A stretch of 64,000 bases of DNA from Bispira polyomma (taxonomy: Eukaryota): assembly GCA_965649765.1 (NCBI GenBank), contig OZ287759.1:28768001-28832000 (forward strand), written 5' to 3'. Shown here one piece after another: positions 2,245 to 63,395 of this stretch (its first letter is position 1; every line of letters starts with the position of its first letter). The notes below the pieces were generated by a model. The model was not told the DNA's origin. It saw only the letters and a program-made list of their open reading frames with translations, and searched no databases. A program made the position numbers and the translations under genes.

Positions 2245-5200
2245 ATAAGTTGAGTTTCCAGTTGGAGCGGTGTCTTATTGAAAAATTTAAAAAATGAATA
2301 AATCTAGTCTGTTATACCCACGTTTCGGCTTTCGTGTTACTTTTGTGAAAACGATAATCTATTATCGCCCATTACTACTATATATTGTCTTTTGTTTTTT
2401 GTGCTTGGTACACTATATTGAACCATCATGTTCACTTTTAGTGCTTGGTGCGCCTTTTTGTACCTTCACGCAATTATTTTACTCCTTGTTTCTTTCTAAA
2501 TCACTTTGTTCACACTTTTACCTTTTTTCATTATTGTTTTTGACTCCTCCCCTTACAATATGTTTGCCATTAGGGCTGCCATCTTGTACCTGTCCTTCCT
2601 TCTGTTCTGTTACCGCAACAACTCTAAACTATCTGATACATTGTCAAAGCCATACCACCTGGTAGACATTAATTTGTCTTGCCATCCGGTTCTACACTTC
2701 TGGTCTCTTCATACACACTGTTATTTTCGGCTAAAACATTCAAACTTATTACGACCTTACTGGCAGTGGATGTCGCAAGTAACCCTGGCCCAATTCAATT
2801 CGGATTTAGAAATGCCCGCTCGTTGTGGAATAAAGGCCCTGTCATTGCATCCCAGAATTACATACCAGGAGTTATGATACTCCATTGTTTCACTCTGACC
2901 TTAAAACAGGCTTTTTTATCAAGACGAACTATGAATGTGTCAATTAGTTGATACACCTAGTTTTACATCTTTCAAATTCATCCTTGTCTCTGCTGACTGG
3001 AAAACGCACTGTTTTAATTTTGCAACAGTCTATCGGCCTCCTGGTTCAAATCTCACTTTATTTTTCAAAGAATTCATGTCCTTTGTTGGGTTTACTTGCT
3101 TGTTACCCTCTCCTACTATATTCTGTAGTGATTTCAATATCCATATGGACACCAAATCTAATAATAGTAATCATTTCTCTACAGTTCTGGAATCTTGCAA
3201 CCTTATCCAACACATAAACTTCCCTACCCATGTTCATGGGCATACACTTTTCTGCCTGCTAACACTTACTGATTTCAATGGTATCAGAAAAATAAAAAAC
3301 ATTATTTGCATCAGTGATCATTTCCTAATATCCTTCAAACTTGATGCAATCCTTTGCTGTCACACAAATCACTTTTCATCAATATCATGAAATCAACATG
3401 TCAGACTTAGACAAGAGTTGATCGATACAGCCTTCATCAAATCTCCTGTCGATAATGCTGCTGATCTATACATGCAGTACTGCGGATCTACAATCTCTTT
3501 TAGAACGCCATGCTGTATGTAAATGTAAGACATTGAAGAAGCCTGCACCTAAGTGGATCACTAGTAGATACCATGAGACGAAGATGCTGCACAGACAAGC
3601 TGAACAGACATGGCGCCAAAACAAAACTATCACGAATAAATGCATCACCAGGTGCAATAACACCATCAATGATTCCAAATGTGCATACTAAACCAACATG
3701 ATCACACAAAGTGAGGGTGATTTGAAGAAACTTTGGGAGAAATTAAACAGCACCCTCCACCGTAAAAACAGAATATACTCCCGCAAAATACCAATAGTAA
3801 ATCACTATTTTTAGTTATTTTTTGCTGCTAAAATTACCAGAATTTGTGACGGTTTTATATTAGCTGCCCCAAATGCTCCTTTACCATCAGCTCCACCAAC
3901 CATCTTCAACTGTTTCTCCATAGTAACTGTTGATAAAGTCAGAAAAATTATACTTACAGCAGCCGTAAAATCTTGCTTGTTAGATCCGTGGCCTACATTT
4001 TATTGCCCTCAATCATCAAACTTATCAACCTCTTATTGGTCAATGGCGTCTTTCAAAATGATTTTAAAAAGGCCATTGTCACTCCTATAGGAAAAAAAAC
4101 CTTCTCTTCCAAAGGCTGACTTGAAAAATTACTTTGCTATATCTCTAAGTTGGTAGAACGCGCGTTGGCCTTACAGTTCAAACAACATCTTGATGTCAGT
4201 AATCCATTCGATAAGTAGGGGTGAGACAGGGTGCCCGGTTACCCGATAACGAGCCGAATTTTTGGGGAAACCGCAGCGAAATTGCAATTCGGGAACTCGA
4301 AAACGTATAAGTTTTATAGAGAAAATCTGTCATTATTGCGTATAATTCTAATTCCCTTTGCAAAAACAATAAATTTGGTCTGATTTCTGCTCCCAACATA
4401 CGTTTTCCTTCTAATTTCCAAAATTCCCCCAGATATTTGCCTTTATTTTTTGATAGTTTTTGTTTATATCTGCCGCCATTTTCTTAGACTGGTTTCTGAG
4501 ATTGGTGCATACTAAATTCGCGGGTACCCGGATTCGAAACGGTTAGACGCTACCGATTATTTGGGCCGCTTTTTTAGGGCTCGTCTCACCCCTACCAATA
4601 AGTATCAGTCAGCGTACAAAGGTGATCATTCTACTGGGACTGCACTACTCTGCATCAAAAATGATGTTCATATATCTTTATCTAAAATTATGCATACTTT
4701 TACAACACTTAGTACAACACTCACTGGATTGCAGTGTGGCCAAAACTCCTAAATTTTCTCACATTACTCCTGTACTCAAGTCACTTCACTGGCTCTCAAT
4801 ATATTATTGTGGTGCTTTCAAAAATGTAACAATTTTATACAAATTTTCTAAATTCTGGATTACCCACTTATTTCAGCCCCCATACCTATCCCAATATACT
4901 TGCTCAGTCAGGATTAGGCACAGTAACCCTGATAAAATTATATCTCAAGATTCCCACTTTTGACCCATGCATCAACAAATACGAAGTACATTTCAATCAT
5001 TGCCTTGCTCATGATGGCCCCTTCATATGGAACAGCCTGCCTGATCATGTTCGCCTGGCTCAAACTCTCTCCTCTTTCAGGAGAAGCTGAATGCCTACCT
5101 TTTTGAATAGGCCTTTCCACCTTAGCCGTCGCAACCGTTTCAGTAATTTTTCCGAGTTACAACTTCCATTGGTCCACCAATTTTGGGTTTTTGATTAACG

Positions 5201-7578: not shown

Positions 7579-8054
7579 CTAAAAATAAAAAAACACACAG
7601 ATTTCCATATGTCTAGGCATGTCATCAATTTAGTGAGATACTCAAATATGCAGTCATATTTTAGATATAATATTGTACACAAGGATACTTAGAAATAAAG
7701 GATACTTAGTTATACCCCAGGGTATAACTTTTCCGCCAAAAGAGAAGAATGATTATGTCAGGTTAGATTGCCAAAATATATTATTATCACAGTAGCATGT
7801 TTTCTATGCAAAAATTTGTACTTTATGCTACATTTTCATACTACTGGATCTATTGTCATTATTATTATCTTCTTTTGCACACATACTATTGAAATACCCA
7901 TACATTCTAGTTTTAAAAAACCTCAAAAACAAATTCAACTATTAAAAGAAAGTAACACTTCTCTTACAAGCTCATTTATCTTATAATGAAAGCAGGATTA
8001 TGAAAACCTTCTTTCAAGCAATACAAAGAATCTCTTAAAAGGTTCTAGACTCAC

Positions 8055-8858
8055 CTTCTCCGTGCTTTTCAACAGGGTTGGGATCGCTGCTACTCTTGTT
8101 GTCAGTCAATCCACTTCGATTTTTCTCACACAAAGGTTTAGTGGCCTCCAGGTTACTTCTCCGTTCTTGAGAAGTATGGTCAAATTTAGAAGCAGAACTT
8201 ATTTTGCTGCTTGGCTCACCATTTCCGCTCTTTGGCTCAGATGTTCCGACATCCTGTGACCCAAGAACTTTCGTGCCATGTGGTTCACTGTTTGCTCTGC
8301 TTTGCTGCTCATATATACTGCTCTGTGAACCATGGTTTTGACTTCTTCTTTCTGGGTCTGACTGGTGGCTGCTCCTACCTGGCTTGCAGTCATTGCAGTT
8401 CTGATTGTTCAAAGATGCTGTTTTTCCATCAGTCTCAGCACTAGTCACTATACCACTGTCTTCTGAAGTATTGTCATTTTTGTTGTAATGGTCCATACAA
8501 TGTGATGTAGGCGGTTTGGAGGTCAGTAGGGTCACAGTTTCTTCAGGAACCTTTTTACTCTGACTTTGCGTTGTTGGGTCATTAGAGTAAACATGATTAT
8601 TGACTGTAGCATGAGCTACCTGAGATAAGCTGAGCTGTGGTTTCTTTTTCTCACATCTCTTATGTAGTAGTACAAATACCAAGATAATTAGTATTATAGA
8701 GAAAGCTATAAACAGAATTGCGATAAGGACGATCAGCAGTACAGATGAAGAGTTTGACCTTTCAGTGGTTTTGGTTTGGACTTGTATGGTAGTTGTAAAC
8801 GGAGCTGCAGTGTTGTTTGCTGTCGTTAGTTTTGACTTTCCCAATAATAGTGTGTACG
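8055..8858 (-). CDS. Grindelwald-like TNF receptor, coding exon 2 (Thr-rich stalk, TM helix, disordered tail)
   Basis: Acceptor (t)n-ccag|CG in phase with exon 1 and in frame with ORF 8035..8844; TM VLLIVLIAILFIAFSIILIILVFVLL followed by basic HKRCEKKK; donor GAAG|GTGAGT at 8055. Confidence 0.9.
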
Positions 8859-9377
8859 CTGGAAAAAAAAAAAAAATGTTTGAAAATTAACCCTTTCGCT
8901 TAGGATTTCCGAGGGATAATTCCTTGACACAGTTTGATGACATCACAAATGATGTTTTTGCAACAACTTATTACATTACAAATAGAAAATATTTGTAATA
9001 TGAACAAAATTTGATTATTACATGATATCTTTATTAGCCATTTTTTCCGATTATGATGCAAAATGTACATGTTATTTAATACCCAGTAGTGCAGTTTAAT
9101 AGAACACTGTATTATTATTATTGCTATATATTTGATATAAACTATCAAATCAACCATAGGTGAGAAGATGAGAAGTTCTATGTAAGCTACTTAATTGTCT
9201 TTTATTACATGTTGTATCTATAATTCTATCACTTTAAGAAAGGGGCCGAGTTTGTGAAAGGGCCGAGTTGGCACTATACCAGGGCAGCAAACCACATATA
9301 CATATGTATCATATTCCACCTAATTTTGTCTAATGTGAATTTATCAATAAACATTTTTCATAGATATTTATACTAAC

Positions 9378-9708
9378 CTAAGCAATGTCTGTGGCATTCA
9401 ACCTCCGAATCTTTCCCTTTATTGCATAGTCGCGAACATGGCGAGCACCTTTTAATGTTAAGGTCACAATAATATCTCTCCACGTCACACTCGGCCGATT
9501 CTTCACACTCCCGAGCATCCTCGGTTGCCAGTATTGGGGTTGCCCGAACGAACCCGCCCTTTACTGCAACTAATGTACATCCGGTTAAAATAATCGGGAC
9601 TTGGTTTGTTATTGACAACCAAGGGTTTAAATCACACTGGACTTCCAGGACAAATCCTTGAAATAATAACACGATTCCTACAATAATATATAACACTTTC
9701 TTATCCAT
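9378..9708 (-). CDS. Grindelwald-like TNF receptor, coding exon 1 (signal peptide + single cysteine-rich domain)
   Basis: Hydrophobic N-terminus MDKKVLYIIVGIVLLFQGFVL; 8-Cys motif C-x5-C-x6-C-x6-C-x2-C-x3-C-x9-C-x3-C followed by LAY after splicing; donor TTAG|GTTAGT. Confidence 0.85.
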
Positions 9709-9797
9709 GTTAGTGGTGTAACAACTGTAATAAAATGATGACCTACCACATATCTGGAACGCGTAATTTCTCCTGTGTAGACTATTTTAAGCCGTTT

Positions 9798-14608: not shown

Positions 14609-14788
14609 TGGCTGGTGCCTGGTCTAAATGGACATCTTGGTCAGATTGTTCCTCTACTTGTGGTGAGGGCATAGAACTGAGGGAGAGGGACTGCAATAAT
14701 CCACCTCCCCAGCATGGCGGGTCGGATTGTCCAGGTAGTGACACAGACAGACGGGATTGCTTCCTCAGAGAGTGTCAAATAGACGGGG
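14609..14788 (+). CDS. TSP1-repeat membrane protein, TSP1 repeat 1 exon
   Basis: ctttccag| acceptor, G|GTAAG donor (phase 1-1); WSKWTSWSDCSSTCGEGIELRERDCNNPPPQHGGSDCPG. Confidence 0.9.
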
Positions 14789-15434: not shown

Positions 15435-15596
15435 GCTGGTCTTCCTGGCAGGAGTGGGCTGGGTGTTCCAGTACTTGTGGCTGGAGTGTACAGACTCGCA
15501 GTAGGACCTGCGACAACCCCATTCCACAGTTTGATGGAGAGGACTGTCCTGGGAAAATACAGGATACTAAGAACTGTATAGTACAGAGATGTCCAG
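15435..15596 (+). CDS. TSP1-repeat membrane protein, TSP1 repeat 2 exon
   Basis: ccttttag| acceptor, CAG|GTAG donor; WSSWQEWAGCSSTCGWSVQTRSRTCDNPIPQFDGEDCPG. Confidence 0.9.
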
Positions 15597-15851: not shown

Positions 15852-16022
15852 TGGATGGAGTGTGGGCCCCCTGGACTGAATGGACCCCATGTTCAAGCAC
15901 CTGTAGCTATGGATCACGTGAGAGACTACGTAATTGCTCGGACCCCTCCCCGGATTTTGGTGGTGCTGACTGTATAGGGCTGAGGTCAGATACCAAGACA
16001 TGTTATGACAGGGAGTGTCCAC
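15852..16022 (+). CDS. TSP1-repeat membrane protein, TSP1 repeat 3 exon
   Basis: tttgtcag| acceptor, C|GTAAGT donor; VDGVWAPWTEWTPCSSTCSYGSRERLRNCSDPSPDFGGADC. Confidence 0.9.
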
Positions 16023-18380
16023 GTAAGTGAGAGGGTGGGTGGGGGTGTGTGGGGTGGGGTTGATGACTGTATGGGGCTGAGGTCAGACACCAAGACTTGT
16101 TATGACAGGGAGTATCCACGTGAGTGGGGGGGGGGGGGGTAATTTGTTATTCGAACAAGCAGCGATTTAAGTCTTTATTAAAATTGATTGTGTCAATTTT
16201 ATACTATCATATGATTTTACAACAAAGCATACCTTTTGGTATAAATAATTTTGATCTTACCTCTATTATAAAGAACATTAGTATGCAATATTACAGTGGC
16301 CTGGTGGTTTAAAGCGCACGATTCAAAATCATTGGTCTCTTATTACCAGGTTTAATGTTAGAAATGTAGACATAGTTCGCGTTGGTAGATACAATTGAAA
16401 ATTCCATAATAAAGGTGCCTACTGTTGTTAAATTCTGTTATCAAGTTATTCTCGATTATCTTTTTTAAAGATATTTTTGAAAGGTCACTTTAGCAATACA
16501 ATATGTATATACAGAGGCTTAATATGATGTTAAAAGATTAATTAAGTTTTGACGAAAGTAGAATTTTTGCATAGGCAAACTATGAATTCTACTGCAACTT
16601 AAAATTAGCTGAATTCCTATGATGAAAACTCAAATCTGAGTTTCATGTTTAGTATAAGAGCCACAGGCCTAAGTGTTTTGGTTATTGAAATTAAAAAAAA
16701 AACATTACACATTTGTAAGGCTGGACTTAAATCAATATGTGGAAGTTGTCAAAAGTTATATCATTGCATCCATCACAGATTCAAACTCAGACCTCCCACA
16801 GCTGAAAAATATGTGGAAATTCTTGTGTTTGACCCTAAGATTAATTTTATAGAGTTAAAATATTTTCACAAATGTGTTGTCTAAATGGAACTTAAGTTTT
16901 GAAAGCATAGCAAATGCTCATTAACCCAGTTCTATCAATCACTGTTTACATTATAAAGGAGAATTTAAACATTTGCAAAAAAGTATATGCTGTATATATT
17001 TCTTTGATAAGAACAGTGAAATAGTGCAGTTATCATTGAAGTGTCAAAAGCATAATATAACTTCCATGTTATACATTAGTTGCACACCTTTGAAATATGT
17101 CCCCTGAATGAAAACTACCTTCACCAATTTTTGTCTAGTTATACCTCCAGTATGATTGAAATTGACAAGACGTATGCACATAATATGTACTGCATAGCCA
17201 GAGGACTGAAATGACAACTGACATTCATTTTTTTACAATAGAAACAGTCTACTTGTAAATACATGTCTATGAAATCAGCCATTTTGCCCTGTCTTATTTA
17301 TTCATAAATCCTATCTGTCCACTAAATTGTTTAACTGTTCTTAACAGAAAGTGCACAAATTCCATAAATAATGCACAACTAATTGTGTAAAAATATTTGT
17401 ATCAATGGAAATTCCCTGTGTTAGCTCCAGGATATTCCCCATTTAGCCTTTTATAGACTGCACTTAAAACAACATGTTTTTAGTGCTGCTATCGTCACTC
17501 ATATAACTGCAGTTCTTGTTTATACTGCCATTTAACTTGGATATTTTTGACAATATAGTTGCAAGGTAGTTACATAGTTAAGTAAGATCTAGCATTTTTA
17601 ATTTACATTAAACCCTTATAACATAATATTGGGTTAACCGAACGCCTCCACAGTCTTTTGTTAAAGAATGTTAGCATTATGTTTGGACAATATTAGCAAA
17701 ATTGAGGAACATAAAAGGGGCAGTTATCCCAGTTATCCAGGAAGATGTAACCTTGGATGAGGGAAAGGTGGGTGCTGACTGATGTAAATAGGTAAACTTT
17801 GAGGTGCTTCCTGAAAGAGGTAAAATGGGGGCTTGACTTAATATGTAATGACGAAGAATTAATACTGGTGGATTTTTGGTGTCTATAATTTTGGTTCATG
17901 ACAAAATATATACATGTATTATTACAAATGTGGGATATGTGTTATCAAACCCGTGTGCCTCAAATAAACTGTAGATTAAACCCAAATGACTGTTGTGAGT
18001 TTGTCACCTATATCCTTATAAAAGAGAAGTAACCCATGTGTGTAACTATTTATTAAAAAAAAAAAAAAATGAAAGCTGAATTTACGTCCTACTATAAAAT
18101 ATATGTAGATCTTTGGTTTAAGTGAGTTTTAAATAGTACTTAGGATTGTCTTTATAGCATGAAGTAACAAACTTATTAGATGGTGGCCTTTTTTTAATCA
18201 GTTACCAAAATTTAAAATGCTTCTTCAAGTAAATGATAGTGGTTGTGCAAACTAAATTTGCTGAGTACTTTTTCAAAAACAGTTCATATTTCACCTTCTA
18301 TCAACTGTAAACTCGCATCACACGTCAAAAAGTCTTATATTCAGATATTCCATAAAAGTGTCGTGTTAATTTAGGATATC

Positions 18381-18387
18381 TATATAA
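18381..18387 (+). promoter_or_regulatory. TATA box of the tRNA-Sec gene
   Basis: TATATAA at -32..-26 relative to 18413; animal tRNA-Sec genes use upstream TATA/PSE elements. Confidence 0.6.
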
Positions 18388-18412
18388 TGGCCCCTAGTAC
18401 AGTCCAACGGTT

Positions 18413-18499
18413 GCCTGAATGAACCTCAGTGGTCCGGGGTGCAGGCTTCAAACCTGTAGCTGACTGACGTCAGAGTGGTTCAATTCCACCTTTTGGGCG
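18413..18499 (+). tRNA. tRNA-Sec(TCA): tRNA-Sec (selenocysteine, anticodon TCA); may be a decaying copy
   Basis: 87-nt GCCTGAATGAACCTCAGTGGTCCGGGGTGCAGGCTTCAAACCTGTAGCTGACTGACGTCAGAGTGGTTCAATTCCACCTTTTGGGCG; nearly co-linear with the vertebrate tRNA-Sec sequence as I recall it; TCA anticodon 18448-18450; long variable arm CTGAC/GTCAG; G discriminator. Confidence 0.93.
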
Positions 18500-19721
18500 T
18501 CACTATATTTATGACTTTATATATTCAGTTTATATAAAGGAAACTATTTCAATATAGTGATATCAATACAGTTGAAACTATATAGTCCATGCTTTTGTAA
18601 TAACATGTTCCCCAACATTCAAAAGTATCAACTGCATAAAACTTTCATACCATTCTCAAACCATACTGAAGTTAATGGTCAAGAATTGTACATATCTAAA
18701 CAAAGATCCTATGGTACGATTGGTTACATTTTCTGTTATGAGAGTTAAAGAGCATGTCACATTTGAATACGCTGAATTTATGTCAAAGCCATAAATTTAT
18801 GCTAAAGCAATGAATCTTGGCTTGGTGATGTCTACTTTAGTGAACGTGATCTTTTTGAGTTAACCATCACTAACTGGTGCCTTAAATAATATATCTGATA
18901 AGATAACTGTATCTTTCCATTTACTGTACAGTATTTAACCACACTCCAGCAATTTAAATACATCAATACTGACAATTCTTTCGCCATTGAATCTTGCCCT
19001 TGTGATATAACCTAAGCTGTTGAAAAATGCTGTAAAGCCCAACTAAATTAATATTCAAATTGTAGATTGAATCTGACTGCTGTGATATGATCTATCAGGG
19101 TAGATTTGTTACGATTTTCAACCTTTATAGGACTCTTTTGTGGCTGTGGTGGCTTAGTGGTTAGAAGCGTCTGCTTCTCAATCACTGGTCTTGCACTAGA
19201 CTGAGTTTTCTGTCCTTGACAATACTATGGGTTACTAATTGCGCATGGTGAGGGACAGAGTCGTTTACTGTACCAAATCGTTGTAAATGTGTAACAGCAC
19301 AAAATAAGAGACAGACAAAACAAATTCTTTTGCCATATTTATTGTGGTTATATTGATTAATCCAATAGTCGTACACAATATAATAACTTAAATGGCCAAC
19401 CAAAAAGTACTTGTTTTCAATATTTGAAAATATTTCTGTATATTTCCTTTTGAAGAGAACATAATAAACTGCTGTGTCAGATTTATAATGATTTGCTATA
19501 GTAAATGACTCTGTCCCTCTACATGCGTACGTCAGAAATTGTTGACGCGGACAAAAAACTTGGTCTAGTCTTGCACCAATGCTGGTTCAAATTGTGTGTT
19601 GTTTCCTTTATGTGGAAGAGTTTGCCAAGTACTTCAGCACGGGTTTCCTTTTGCCAATGAAATTGGCCGCTGTGAAAAAATGCCGAAAAACCCAACTAAA
19701 TTAAAAAATTTCAAATTGCAG

Positions 19722-19892
19722 AAGACGGAGGCTGGACGAAGTGGACCTTGTGGTCCTCCTGCACATTGACCTGTGGTGGAGGCCACAGAGAACGGGTACG
19801 GTTCTGTACCGCCCCGTCTCCAAGGTACGATGGAAGCTACTGCCAAGGCAACGGTACTTATGTACAGCCCTGTAATATCATGGATTGTCCAG
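19722..19892 (+). CDS. TSP1-repeat membrane protein, TSP1 repeat 4 exon (absent from ORF track)
   Basis: ttgcag| acceptor, CAG|GTGAG donor (phase 1-1); (Q)DGGWTKWTLWSSCTLTCGGGHRERVRFCTAPSPRYDGSYCQGNGTYVQPCNIMDCP. Confidence 0.9.
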
Positions 19893-21634: not shown

Positions 21635-21840
21635 AAATTGTGGCATTGATAGCTGAGCAGGAGATCAAGCCCGTTGAGGCTCCTGGGGCGGTGAGTATAG
21701 GGATGATAGGACTGGCCTTCTGTGGGGTACTGCTGGCATTTGTGATAGTCCTTGACTTGGCCACCATATCCAGGCATTTCTCCTACATGAAGAGGAATGT
21801 GAGGTACTTCAAAGATAGGGTGTGGACACACAGAGGAAGG
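21635..21840 (+). CDS. TSP1-repeat membrane protein, transmembrane exon
   Basis: tttttccccag| acceptor (phase 1), AGG|GTGAG donor (phase 0); AVSIGMIGLAFCGVLLAFVIVLD TM helix followed by a basic segment. Confidence 0.85.
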
Positions 21841-22650
21841 GTGAGCTGGTCTTATAAGTTAATATTTGTAACTCTGTTTGTGGCCTTTTGACCTTCAAAC
21901 CTTGCAATGGCTGTCGGGTTATAAGCTATCTTTTAAAATAATTCTCAGTATTAGTTATGTGGATAAAAGGGGTAAGCTATGCAAACAAATGGTGGAATCC
22001 TATACTAGCATGACACTCCTTTGTCCGTGATTCTGATAGGCCGAAAGCTTCGGTAAAATTCTGTACATACACACTGGTGGTTCCATCAATCCCCCATGTA
22101 AACGTAAGAAATATGGAACAGCCTGTGTTTACATATGTTTATGACCAAAAGAGATGGTATTTGGTTAAATTTGAAGTAAGTTTTATCTTTTTTATTATTT
22201 TGTCATGTTAGAATTAGGAATAACACATTCCAAAGCATGGTATATCTATACCCAGGATTAAAAAAGTTAAGGCTAAACATTGAATTATGGTAAAATTTAG
22301 TGTATTTCTGTTCCACAATTCAGTTGGCTTGAAAAGTTTATTCTAATATGTTAATCTGGTGAGGATTATGGTATTTTAATATTTATATACTTACACATTC
22401 TTTTTAACATAACATTTTTTAACAACAGTTTTTTAACCTAAGGCTGGTTTATTATCGACCAAAAAATTCAAGTCAAAAGTTTTAGTTAGTCATACTTGTC
22501 TAAAAATAACTCTATTGTCTAAAAATAACACTATTGTTGATCTGTAAAATTCCCCAGAGTAATATGTTTTCATCATATTTTGAGTTTTTGGACTCAACAC
22601 AAAATTATTCTTAACAAATGTTCAACAAAAATTTTAAATATTTTATTTAG

Positions 22651-22965: not shown

Positions 22966-23659
22966 GGGATGAAAATCTAATCAAGGGACATACCGTTAAT
23001 TCCTTTATTGATCTATATTTATCAAAGGACAAAACGGTAAACTACCAATTACCCTTTGCCCTTTACAGCTTGAGGCTTTCAATATGTGTCCATTACCTTT
23101 TTCCACTTGTATTAGTCCCAAATTTGGAAGTTCACAAAACCATAGACTTCAATAATGGGAAAAAAATCAAGGTACATACCGTTAATTCCTTTATTGATTT
23201 ATATTTATCAAAGGACAAAGTTAATTCCTTTATTGATTTATATTTATCAAAGGACAAAACAGTAAACTACCCATTACCGTTTACCTTTTCACTGTTTGAA
23301 GCTTTAAATAACTCTCTATTAAATTTTTGTGCTTACATTAGTCCCAAATTTGGAAATACACAAAACAGTTGACTTTATTAATGGAAAACTACTCCATTCC
23401 TTTTAATTTTAATGCCCAGGGCTTTAGTGGAATAGGGTGAACGTAACTTTTTATTGGCTCGTATTTAAGTCATTATGACATCACAAAGTTTTTATATCAC
23501 CAAGGCAATAATAAAACATAAAGTTTTACATGTAAAAAATTGTTAACATCAAATATACACTTTTACATATACGTTCTAAACAACCCAAAATAAATACAAA
23601 AATGTATAGGGTAGTTAGGAAGCCCCTAATAGGACATCAATATATATATTTTTTTCACT

Positions 23660-25439: not shown

Positions 25440-26720
25440 ATGATTCCACAAAGAATAATAAATCCAGCAAATGGACTTGGGGCTGTAATTGCCTACATGC
25501 AACTGATGGTTATTATGGACATCAAAGACAGGATAAGACGATTAAGAAGGCAAATGGAAGCACTGAATGTACAGCCTCAGCCCCAGGCTCAGGTGGCCAG
25601 AAGATGAAGGACAAGGCCAAGGTTCTGGATCAAGCTCTGGCTCAGGGAAAGGGCAGCAAATGAACACTACACATTGCTCATGGCACGCCTAGAGCTGCAA
25701 GATCTCCAGTCGTACCATAACTTCCTCAGGATGCCCCCTGATATATTCCAGGAGATGGAGAGGCAGGTGGGGCACAAGATACAGAGACACACCACCTGGT
25801 ACAGGTAGGCACTGGCCCCTGGACTAAAGATAGCTATCTCTTTGTGGAATTTGGCTACTGGGGAGTCCTACACATCACTGCAGCACTCGTTCGTAATGGA
25901 AAGGCCAACCATAACTAAGTTTGTGCTAGAAGTTTGCCAGGAATTCCTCACATGCCCCACCAGCCCTGACAACTGGAAGAAGGTCGAGTCCGTGTTTTAG
26001 AACACGTGGAACGTTTCCAATGGCCTGGGGGTCAAAAACGGCAAACACATTGCTATGAGATACCCGAGGAAAGGTGTGAGCAAATTCCTCAGCTACAAAG
26101 GGTACAACTCAATCGTCATGCTTGCCCTGGTAAATGGGGATCACCATTTCCTGTGGGTCGACATAGGTTCAAGCGGCTCATGGATCATGGATTTTTAACA
26201 GATCCGAACTGAAGGAGAAAATAGAGGACCACTTAAGCAACACCCCCACCCCTTGAAACCATTAGCCCTGTCAGAGCCCCTGTCCCCTACTTCATCCTGG
26301 CATCCTGCATTTGCCCTAAAGACATAGTTGATAAAACCATACTCCCGACGGAGGGGGGGGGGGAGATGGACATGAACAAAATGATATACAAATACAGGAT
26401 CTCCAGAGGCCGAAGGGTGGTCGAAAATGCATTTGGGATTTTAGTCCAGAGATCCTGGGTGCTTCTGCCAATGATGCAGCAGGAACCACCAGTGGTGGCC
26501 ACCATAGCTTTAGCATGTGTGGTCCTGCACAATGTGATAAGGACCGCAGCTAATCCAGGCTAATCCAGGTAATCCAGAAGATGACCCAATTGTCCCACCC
26601 ATGGCAGCACGTGTTGGAGGAAACAACCCACCCAACTGTAAAAATCCCAGCAGGGCACCAAGAGAACAGAGGGAGCTACTCATGCAATATTTCACCAATG
26701 AGGGGGAAGTGTCCTAGCAG
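25440..26720 (+). pseudogene. Harbinger DDE transposase (HARBI1/DDE_Tnp_4-like) pseudogene
   Basis: Motifs LATGESYTSL, GKHIAM, KGYNSIVMLALV, RISRGRRVVENAFGIL, ACVVLHN spread over several frames with stops and frameshifts. Confidence 0.9.
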
Positions 26721-26829
26721 AACGACCAAGTTTGAGTCCACACCTGAGCCTGAGCCTAAGCCAAGAACAAACCTAAAAGGCCCTTTTCAGGGCCACCCAA
26801 AACATCCAAAAACAATGTTTGAGTGGTTG

Positions 26830-27550
26830 TTGAAAACCCCCATAAACACCCCTTATGACAAGAAGCATGAGCATGGTATTGCATCTGGGTTTGTGACTGG
26901 TACTGAGGATGCTGCTGGGACTGTGGCACTAGTTGTGGTCTAGCAACCCTGTCCTGGATAGTGTTTACAAGGTTAAATGCCTCCCTTCTGAAGTGGTTGA
27001 AATGTTCATGTGGCAATTTCTCGGCCTCCAATGTTAACCAGTTGAGAAATTCCCCCCTGGGTCCCTCAGTCCTGGGTTTGATGGCATCCTTGAAGAAGCC
27101 TGAGATGGTGCCCTGCATCGTGACCAGCACTATCTCTCAGCTCACTAGACAGTTCCGCCTCAGGGATCGGGGTTGATCTGGCACAGACTAAAGACTGCTT
27201 AGGGGAACTCCCAGGGGATGCTATCAGCAAGGAAGACTCCATCTTTGTGTCTGACTGGAACTTCATGATGCTCAGCTTGCCATAGATAGTCCTCTGTGAA
27301 AGAAACCACTTCTTCACTTTTTTATGTCCAATCCCTTGCCCGAGCAGAACTCCAGTCACAACATGTCTTTGTATCACGGGTCGCTCTTGTTGTATAGTCA
27401 TTTATGGTCCCACAGAAAGTCCACCAGTGCCTCCTCCTCTGCCTCACTGTACATGACCGTACGCATCTTCCCCTTCTTCTGTTTCCTCAATATAGAAGCC
27501 ACCTCTCCATGCCCCAGTTGTGTCAGCTTCATTCTCCTGGGTTCCCTCCT
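26830..27550 (-). pseudogene. Harbinger Myb/SANT (MADF-like) DNA-binding partner pseudogene
   Basis: LVDFLWDH..LYNK and KKWFLSQRTIYGKL, plus C-terminal EFLNWLTLEAEKLPHEHFNHFRREAFNLV; convergent to the transposase as is typical of Harbinger. Confidence 0.7.
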
Positions 27551-30009
27551 GCTTAATCACTGGAGTCTGTGAACGCTGAGAAAGCTGTGTCTCAGGGATG
27601 ACAAGGGGCACAATGCTTAACATTTTCTAACTGTAACATTTTATTCTAAAAAAATCAACAAATTACTGTTCTCAATAATAATCTCAATAATAATCTCTGT
27701 CTGTAGAATTATAGAATTGTTGATAGTTGTGAAGTCTCCAAGATGCTGTAGCTAAATGAATCGCTGTCACTAACCCCCTTATATACCCTAGGGCCTTCTC
27801 CCGACATGCGCGCCGACCAATAATATTTTGCGCCCGAGTTATTTTTTGACACCCGATATATCGTTTCAATTCCCTGACCTAGCTTTTGTCTCCCCGAGTT
27901 ATCTTTTCACTCAGCTGGTGCCAACAATGTATCGTTTGCTTGGCCCAACCTATCTTTTCGATCTGGGCATCCCTAACGACTTTTCTTGTGTTTTGTTATC
28001 ATTTCAATTGGAGGCAAACAAAGGATCTATCTTTGACACATGACATGATAAGTCAAAGGGTCAAAAGATAACTCGTAATGGCCCCCGACCTATTTTTGTG
28101 ATGGACAGATAAATAGTAATGAAATTTTAAACGGTATAGGGGAAGATTGAAAAGATAGGTCATTAGATGGTAAAGATAAGTCGTAAATTTGTTTACATTT
28201 GGCCCCTGACTGACCCCAATTGATCGGCCGTGCCACACATATTCGCCCCTGCTCCCATGTTTTAGAACCTCTGCAACCTCCCCTATTGGAAACAAAAAGT
28301 CGTTGGAACCCCCCGACCTCCCCAATAATTGGCCCATACAATGATGTTAACTTGATCTTATAATCATAACAATCGGGGGCTAGGATTGGCATAGTGGAAC
28401 AGGGGTATTACTTGAGATATTGAGTCAATTATTCGAGATAATTGGGGATAAATAATTTTTTCCATTGGTGGCCCATATATGCTTCCACAACCTGCATTAT
28501 GGTGGAAAAACCGTTATTTCACACATGTAAAGGTAGTTTTGTGACATCACACAGTCAGATGTATATTGCAGATATTCGTCTAATTTACTACCCTATAAAG
28601 TTATGCTGATGCTTATAAAGTTATGCTTATAAATTTATGCTTGTCTTTTTTTTTACATAATATAACACCTTATATTTTATTTTTGCCTTGGTGACAAAAT
28701 TTGTGATGTTATAAGGACTTGTAAAAGCAGGAGCTAGAAGGAACTGCCTGATTGGCTGTGTGAACGGTCCTAGGCATCTAAATTGTACACAAATACTTCA
28801 AAGAAAACAGGTAGTTTGACATTATTTCATGTACTGTTTTATGTACTTCCAAATTTGGGAACAGTATAAGCACCAAAACGAAATGCAGACTTCTTTGAAG
28901 CCCTGAAAAAGGGTAAACGGTAACAGGTAGTTTACTGTTTTATTCTTTTATTTAAAAAAAAGAGAAATAAAGTAATTAATGGTATGTCCCTTGATAAGAT
29001 ATACTGTTTTATGTACTACTAAATTTGGGACTAATATAACACCAAAAAGGAAATAGGGGTTATTTAAGGCCTCAAACAGTAAAACGGTAAAGGGTAATGG
29101 GTAGTTTACCGTTTTGTTCTTTTATAAAAAAAATCAATAAAGGAATTAACGGTATGCGCCTTGATTAAATCTGTTAAGGTTTTAAATGACTACTATTCTA
29201 TCGAAAGTGTAAATATCAAAAAAGATCAAAAGCGATATTCAACAATAAAAACCATGTAGTATTATAAACTAATGCGCTTAGTACACGTTTCTCCTGGTAG
29301 CAAAAACGTAAAAATTGCTATTTGCTGTCGAACAGCGGCTGATTGGCATAACCCATTGGCGACATGGAAATGTAGACTTATTCTAGAAAATGTGATTGTG
29401 TTTAACTCACTTAAAGAATATAGTTGTGATTAGTTTTGCACACACAACTGATTTTAAACTGAGGAGCAGTTTTAACTCATTGTAAATAAATTTGAAGACC
29501 AATATCTTCTTAGCAAAAGTGTATTATATTGCTTGTAATATATATACATGAATGATTAATAATATATGAAGATTCATTATATCACTTTGAGGCTTCTCTA
29601 TTTTTATTTTAGACCGACCTACATTACTAGAAGAATATTGTCATGGGTAACATGTGTGATTTTGTATGTGTTTATTTAACATTATAACGAACATGGCATC
29701 AACTGTTGTAAAACAATTGAAACAACAAGAGAGACTCCTTACCAATGAAATCCAACAATAAAAAATTATAAACTCATTACATAATATTATATTTCAAGAA
29801 GTCAATTATTACCGAAACTAAACATGGTATGCCAGATTTTGCGTGTAATAAGTAATTAGGTATATCAAATATTCAATTTCACAACCATAATGAGCAAAAT
29901 ATACAGTGGATGTCCTGTATATAACCTAATAAAGTGTGTTGACCTTTTAGCTAAAGACATTATATAAATATAATCATGAATCAATCAAAAGGCAATAGTA
30001 TCAAAAGCA

Positions 30010-62800: not shown

Positions 62801-63131
62801 GGCACTGTCATAGAATATGAAGAACATTTAACCTGATATAAACATTAAATACATGGCATATATTATAATAAAATTTTAACTGAAATAAAATGTTACGAAT
62901 TTGCAATATTTAGGAAATTCACTGGAATTGATTTTCACTATTTACTATTTCAATACAAAATTTAGTTGTGTCATAGACAGTCAATGATCAATGTTAGTTA
63001 CTGGTGCTGATATTCTATGCTTGTGCATTAATGAAATTATGGTTAAAAATGAGATACTTTGCAAAATAAACCAACAAGCTAGAAGGACACTCGGTAGAGT
63101 GAATACCTCTGCCAAATACAAACAAATGATG

Positions 63132-63395
63132 CACTTGAAAGATACGTCGCCAGTGCAGTGCCGTACGATAAAGTTATTTAGAGTCACCAATGGGATGCCA
63201 CCAAGAGGATGTTTGGTTTAGGTCTAATAAAAGCGCTCTTCCCCGAAGGTCAGAGCTTGAATGCATGTATTAGCTCTAGAATTATCTAAGAGTTATCCAA
63301 ATAGGATGTACATTCTAAGAAATGACATATGATTTAATGAGCCATGACTTAATCTTTAAGACAAGCATATGACTACTGGCAGGATCAACCAGATA
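63132..63395 (-). pseudogene. 18S rRNA 5' fragment (orphan rDNA pseudogene)
   Basis: Reverse complement begins TATCTGGTTGATCCTGCCAGTAGTCATATGCTTGTC and contains GGCTCATTAAATCA, TAATTCTAGAGCTAATACATGC, GAGCGCTTTTATTAG, GGCGACGTATCTTTCAA; truncated, with substitutions and an internal deletion. Confidence 0.92.

Follow-up and report, generated by a model that had tools for sequence, protein, structure and literature searches.

Selenocysteine tRNA (tRNA-Sec) is charged by SerRS, PSTK and SepSecS and is brought to UGA by eEFSec. The eukaryotic molecule, as modelled in Rfam (RF01852) and by Secmarker, combines a 9/4 fold, a UCA anticodon, a long variable arm, a 4-nt D-loop, G73 and a set of reported invariant bases (PMC5330540). 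In vertebrates the gene (TRNAU1/Trsp) has a U6-type promoter made up of a distal element, a PSE near -70 and a TATA box at -30 (PMC2943599). TRNAU1 has FOSB and RTN2 as its neighbours and is not intronic, and the first T4 of the human gene lies at +45.

Other arrangements have been described. The C. elegans tRNA-Sec gene (WBGene00023106) is placed in an intron of a gene transcribed by Pol II (PMC2943599), and the human pseudogene TRNAU2 is a retrocopy within a PARVB intron that has C73 and several broken acceptor pairs, shows no Pol III signal and is homologous only over the mature tRNA (PMC5330540). The tRNA-Sec of Trypanosoma brucei is transcribed by Pol II within a polycistron and has a deficient B box. 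Of all 609 C. elegans tRNA genes, 44% are located in introns, a share that does not differ from chance, and 56% of the intronic ones are in sense orientation; same-strand intronic tRNAs show lower Pol III occupancy, and host promoters affect intronic tRNAs (PMC4999229). Damaged spare copies are also on record, as 145 of 252 extra G73 tRNA-Sec copies in the Secmarker survey carry structure-breaking changes (PMC5330540).

Identity and anatomy of the tRNA-Sec gene

The window, that is the whole 64-kb stretch of DNA analysed here, was searched against Rfam with cmscan, and three matches exceeded their cut-offs. One of them is tRNA-Sec (RF01852) at 18413-18498 on the + strand, with 72.4 bits against a gathering cut-off of 47, an E-value of 6.9e-13 and coverage of model positions 1-91 out of 91. 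The original prediction, which was made from the letters alone and would have been refuted by a failed covariance-model search, called an 87-nt tRNA-Sec with a UCA anticodon; the search returned exactly this family above cut-off, and the arms, paired one by one, fit the 9/4 model and its 13-bp acceptor-plus-T helix:

18413-18499, +: tRNA-Sec gene, 87 nt including G73, 9/4 fold (RF01852 and arm-by-arm pairing)
18413-18421/18490-18498, +: acceptor stem, eight standard pairs plus U·U
18424-18439, +: D arm, five of six D-stem pairs standard, 4-nt loop
18428-18435, +: A14 (18428) opposite C21 (18435), a mismatch at the fifth of the six D-stem pairs (arm-by-arm pairing)
18440-18458, +: anticodon arm, 6/6 pairs, UCA at 18448-18450, U33 present
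18459-18474, +: variable arm, five standard pairs plus G·A, 4-nt loop
18475-18489, +: T arm, T stem with 4/4 pairs
18477-18487, +: B box/T-loop, intact against the B-box consensus, with the same sequence as in the vertebrate-type rows of the Secmarker alignment
18491-18494, +: T4 run within the 3' acceptor strand, 5 nt before G73, a possible premature Pol III terminator (sequence)
18499, +: discriminator base G73 (arm-by-arm pairing)

All the bases that Secmarker gives as invariant in eukaryotes (G18, G19, U33, U55, C61, C66, the anticodon and G73; PMC5330540) were found within 18413-18499, and the acceptor U·U column is also unpaired in the Secmarker consensus. Since ARAGORN reported no tRNA genes in the window and the folding z-score of the tRNA-Sec was not significant (-1.12), the call stands on the covariance model and the arm-by-arm check. 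At the level of sequence, 18413-18499 on the + strand is confirmed as a eukaryotic tRNA-Sec; the locus belongs to the family by model score and by most of the defining features, its function being a prediction. A second tRNA-Sec copy was not found within the 64 kb, one 12-nt word excepted, and the variable-arm stretch had no match in prokaryotic genomes. The description of the tRNA as complete agrees with the full-length model match; it passed over the A14·C21 mismatch and the internal T4, both of which bear on function and set the locus apart from the eukaryotic model.

As a reference we used the 140-row eukaryote alignment in the Secmarker supplement (PMC5330540), in a file that lists the alignment twice, so that text counts double; it was curated for model building, which means that mismatches are under-sampled, and it may hold no close relatives of this animal. 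Six lophotrochozoan genera that were looked up by name are not mentioned in the Secmarker supplements. By eye, the locus equals the vertebrate-type row AACN010028907.1 at 77/86 positions, and the nine differing positions (9/86) comprise a double compensatory change at 18463/18470, one wobble turned into a Watson-Crick pair, two Watson-Crick pairs turned into wobbles, three unpaired positions and one broken pair. The original prediction had singled out the compensatory change in the long variable arm. It exists as described, A18463-U18470 standing in place of the U-A pair of vertebrate-type rows (by eye), but the variable stem-loop motif gives six text matches, that is three rows, all ABJB. Being common to three other rows, the change points to descent from a functional invertebrate tRNA-Sec and not to selection at this locus. 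The acceptor wobbles G5·U68 and U4·G69 recur in other rows, the tandem pair being seen in ADBU01001362, and rows AAGJ04146133 and ACUQ carry a D-stem U11·U24 mismatch (all by eye).

Host gene and intronic placement

The tRNA-Sec lies inside an intron between two exons with Pfam TSP_1 domains, the donor being 2,390 nt and the acceptor 1,222 nt away from it:

14609-14788, +: host exon, TSP1 repeat 1, the 5'-most found (Pfam TSP_1, E 1.9e-15)
15435-15596, +: host exon, TSP1 repeat 2 (Pfam TSP_1, E 1.3e-12)
15852-16022, +: host exon, TSP1 repeat 3, upstream of the tRNA (Pfam TSP_1, E 3.8e-13)
16023-19721, +: host intron, 3,699 nt, GT-AG, phase 1, on the same strand as the tRNA
19722-19892, +: host exon, TSP1 repeat 4, downstream of the tRNA (Pfam TSP_1, E 1.5e-12)
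21635-21891, +: last coding exon, with a hydrophobic, likely transmembrane stretch and a short tail (44% identity over 61 aa to Capitella teleta ELU15433.1)

Joined together, the five exons form a frame of 313 codons in which the only stop comes last. A start codon, a signal-peptide exon or any further upstream exon was not found in the window, which leaves the gene model open at its 5' end, and the tRNA-bearing intron contains no hidden TSP1-like exon. The sense orientation within a Pol II intron that the original prediction had proposed was recovered. Its label for the host, the TSP1 gene, is correct in that TSP_1 exons flank the tRNA, but judging from the predicted exons the gene encodes a TSP1-repeat membrane protein and not thrombospondin-1. 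THBS1 is a secreted protein in which the TSP1 repeats are followed by EGF, type 3 repeat and C-terminal domains; it was ruled out as the host, as the four TSP_1 exons lead directly to the hydrophobic last exon and a stop.

The closest named architecture is that of C. teleta ELU15433.1, in which tandem TSP1 repeats are also followed by a related membrane-and-tail segment, although this protein is longer, with an N-terminal domain that is unmatched in the window and, counted by eye, seven TSP1 repeats. The last host exon has 27 relatives at E-values up to 0.001, of which ten were looked up and six were named; the five named relatives with a species are all lophotrochozoan (Tubulanus, Capitella, Lottia, Gigantopelta and Lingula), which makes a lophotrochozoan source of the DNA probable. 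In word-indexed protein searches exon 4 matched two unnamed TSP1 proteins, and the last exon drew no match.

Repeats are found at both ends of the tRNA-bearing intron. At its start, the end of TSP1 exon 3 together with the donor forms part of a tandem repeat (15958-16046 and 16055-16140, 85%), making a decoy donor possible. Toward its end, 19142-19600 has a tRNA-SINE-like head, 83% identical to a repeat at 5388-5639/47455-47706, and is split by an element of about 390 nt that has short inverted repeats at its termini, a 58-nt inverted repeat inside it and an 8-bp repeat on its flanks, and that looks like a hAT-type MITE.

The surprise that the original prediction attached by implication to the intronic site did not survive comparison. 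The site is not special, given that intronic tRNA-Sec has been published for C. elegans (PMC2943599), albeit in another phylum, and for the human PARVB pseudogene (PMC5330540), that 44% of worm tRNA genes are intronic and that 87% of the host coding span is intron.

Working gene or damaged spare

Four features outside the mature tRNA bear on its expression:

18347-18365, +: putative PSE-like stretch, -66 to -48, with partial likeness to the human and fly PSE
18381-18387, +: TATA box, TATATAA, starting at exactly -32, the sole TATA[AT]A match in 18300-18412
18593-18596, +: first downstream T4, at +94 (sequence)
18852-18856, +: first downstream T5, at +353 (sequence)

Building on the observed tRNA anatomy, the TATA box at -32 and the intron position, and modelling the mechanism on the vertebrate system, we favour, with a probability of roughly 0.55, the reading that this is a tRNA-Sec gene of the ordinary eukaryotic kind that lies within an intron and would be transcribed independently by Pol III from a U6-type promoter, possibly as a weak variant. 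The weights given to this reading and to its three rivals are our own judgement. SNAPc would bind a PSE near -66 to -48 and TBP/Brf2 the TATA box, with Pol III starting at or near G1; in at least some rounds the polymerase would pass the internal T4, stopping in the T-rich trailer at the +94 T4 or further on. Trimming of the 3' end and addition of CCA would follow, and the tRNA would be charged by SerRS, PSTK and SepSecS and carried to UGA by eEFSec. A14·C21 would be an allele, a base error or a variant that is either tolerated or weakening, and the intronic site incidental.

As in vertebrate TRNAU1, the locus has a TATA box near -30, a conserved B box and a first trailing T4 far downstream, whereas the PSE, Z-motif and octamer are only candidates here. 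The TATA box is where the original prediction placed it, and the chance of a TATA start within -35 to -29 is 0.004-0.028, depending on pattern and background. That prediction had also pointed to a PSE-like stretch at about 18347-18366; the stretch exists and scores at chance. In tests fixed beforehand from published motifs, it matches the human U6-1 PSE (PMC9652321) at 5/9 key positions with a 1-nt shift, as well as or worse than 29,674 of 127,590 control positions (23%), and the fly PSE (PMC1761439) at 5/7 invariant positions, a score also reached at 23,644 of 127,590 control positions (19%). Insect PSEs diverge quickly, so that a null score against foreign motifs weighs little. At 525 of 127,590 positions (0.4%) there is a pattern of CC, T and GT that keeps the register of human U6-1, but this pattern was chosen post hoc and is left uncounted. 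For the Z-motif (at -211) and the octamer (at -186), compared with the human motifs only, the best look-alikes have four and one mismatches, which are equalled at 60% and 56% of 600 control positions. A bacterial promoter and terminator scan, not applicable here, gave 2 sites against 2.2 expected. A literature search yielded no PSE described for this lineage and, judged by title and start of abstract, nothing relevant on mollusc U6 promoters or mollusc tRNA-Sec.

A T4 run is sufficient to stop human Pol III, whereas yeasts need longer runs, and read-through is common (PMC5356446). A U4 run in the acceptor strand is found in 1/140 Secmarker rows (two text matches in the doubled file). Downstream of the gene, the +94 spacing is unremarkable, since the first T4 is at least 94 nt away at 36% of host-intron positions; the internal T4 is the odder feature. 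An snRNA 3'-box-like match at +29 is not significant (9%).

The A14·C21 combination gave no text match in the Secmarker alignment (140 rows, listed twice), as against 72 for A14-U21 and 100 for G14-C21 in the same loop context; by eye, 14:21 is paired in every row and G14 is present in about 50. With the mismatch, the closing pair 15:20a has a ViennaRNA probability of 0.26 at 37 C and 0.54 at 15 C, and restoring the pairing by changing either base raises it to 0.99-1.00 with an energy lower by 4.2-5.7 kcal/mol at 37 C, values that overstate the damage because the energy model has no protonated A·C pair. The D-stem's length and its structure are reported to be the main determinant for human PSTK, and phosphorylation was lost when the last two pairs were opened (PMC2330242, citing Wu and Gross 1994). 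As the window is depleted in CpG (observed/expected 0.44, and 0.39 in the intron) and A14 is preceded by C13, we propose that the break would most simply have arisen from G14 to A by deamination at a methylated CpG. An earlier idea, by which three changes were all CpG decay, was weakened by the presence of G5·U68 and U4·G69 in other rows, and position 14 alone remains. Neither this locus nor an A14·C21 variant turned up in a literature search, a result of little weight given the search's thin coverage of subscription papers. One broken base pair is compatible with both a working copy and a damaged spare.

The working-gene reading draws on the full-length 72.4-bit match, the full set of invariant bases, the 77/86 identity, the TATA box (chance 0.4-3%), the variable stem-loop shared with three invertebrate rows, the U11·U24 mismatch and tandem wobbles seen in other rows and a host span that is 87% intron. 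It has to accommodate A14·C21, which is absent from 140 rows and, in the energy model, weakens 15:20a in a D-stem that human PSTK is reported to depend on, the T4 placed 5 nt before G73, a PSE, Z-motif and octamer at chance, and the lower Pol III occupancy of same-strand intronic worm tRNAs.

Several of these difficulties would be expected of a young redundant duplicate made at the DNA level, or of a defective allele, in which the TATA box was kept and decay has begun while the working gene lies elsewhere. We regard this main rival as possible, though less probable. A14·C21 in 0/140 rows, the 145/252 structure-broken extra G73 copies, the CpG depletion with A14 after C13 and G14 in about 50 rows, the internal T4 and the absence of a significant PSE or distal element are all consistent with it; yet only a single standard pair is broken, the anticodon, G73, T-loop and TATA box are intact, and the two acceptor wobbles, found in other rows, are no marks of decay. 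Neither a second copy within the 64 kb nor transposon ends beside the gene were found, which also speaks against a duplicate.

A far less probable route would have the tRNA cut out of the host pre-mRNA intron by RNase P and RNase Z, its supply tracking the expression of the host gene. The sense orientation would suit such processing, and termination is awkward for Pol III, whose transcript would end before G73 if it stopped at the internal T4 and would otherwise meet its first T5 at +353. Trypanosome tRNA-Sec, also embedded in a Pol II transcription unit, is made by Pol II, and its authors raise the route for intronic tRNAs (PMC2943599); host promoters affect intronic tRNAs in the worm (PMC4999229). 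The trypanosome gene, however, sits in a polycistron and has a deficient B box, whereas the present one lies in a cis-spliced intron with a TATA box at -32 and an intact B box, the marks of a Pol III unit. The sense share of intronic worm tRNAs is only 56%, and neither the +94 distance nor the 3'-box-like match stands out. Likewise improbable is the combined reading that this is the only or main tRNA-Sec of the animal and that it functions despite A14·C21 and T4, either through Pol II intron processing or because the PSTK of this lineage has lost its need for the full D-stem.

Least probable of all is a retrocopy at a TA-rich site whose "TATA" is target-site sequence: the human intronic copy is one (PMC5330540) and also has broken pairing, the three bases after G73 are TCA, a single change away from CCA, and a 6-mer that overlaps the TATA box recurs just downstream, but such a repeat occurs at 9% of control positions and leaves 27 nt between 6-mer and G1, no encoded CCA, poly-A or significant target-site duplication is present, and G73 and a TATA box at the expected distance are kept, so that the original argument holds, by which the TATA box makes a retrocopy less likely than a genomic locus or a duplication of DNA.

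The value of the locus lies mainly in annotation, as it points to an invertebrate that probably uses selenoproteins and to a tRNA overlooked here by ARAGORN. If it is a working gene, its upstream region would provide a U6-type promoter for a lineage for which the literature search found no described PSE, and A14·C21 would put the D-stem rule for eukaryotic PSTK to a natural test. Should the locus be a spare, it would join the many damaged extra copies already counted. Pol II processing, if true, would tie selenoprotein output to a TSP1 membrane-protein gene.

Other features of the window

A Histone3 stem-loop (Rfam, 42.4 bits, cut-off 34) lies at 26774-26820 on the + strand, with no histone ORF seen upstream. 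It follows, by about 200 nt, a same-strand and broken transposase of Harbinger-like type (DDE_Tnp_4) at about 25.6-26.6 kb, and overlaps the tail of a convergent minus-strand ORF; AATAAA or ATTAAA is absent from both strands of 26500-27000. It may be a captured histone 3' end or the histone-type ending of a transposase mRNA, and a literature search on Harbinger and histone stem-loops gave nothing relevant, judged by title and start of abstract. An inverted repeat pair at 23467-23539 and 28649-28720 (79%), about 5.2 kb apart, surrounds the Harbinger-like region and is a candidate for its ends.

At 8035-9786 on the - strand a divergently oriented gene comprises a signal-peptide-like, Cys-rich exon and a transmembrane exon, with a weak TMEM154 match alone and no relatives in a word-indexed protein search. 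An orphan, decayed 5' fragment of 18S rDNA (73.8 bits) is found at 63107-63345 on the - strand, the match running slightly further 5' by eye. A broken LINE-like remnant with an Exo_endo_phos_2 endonuclease-domain match occupies 2900-5100.
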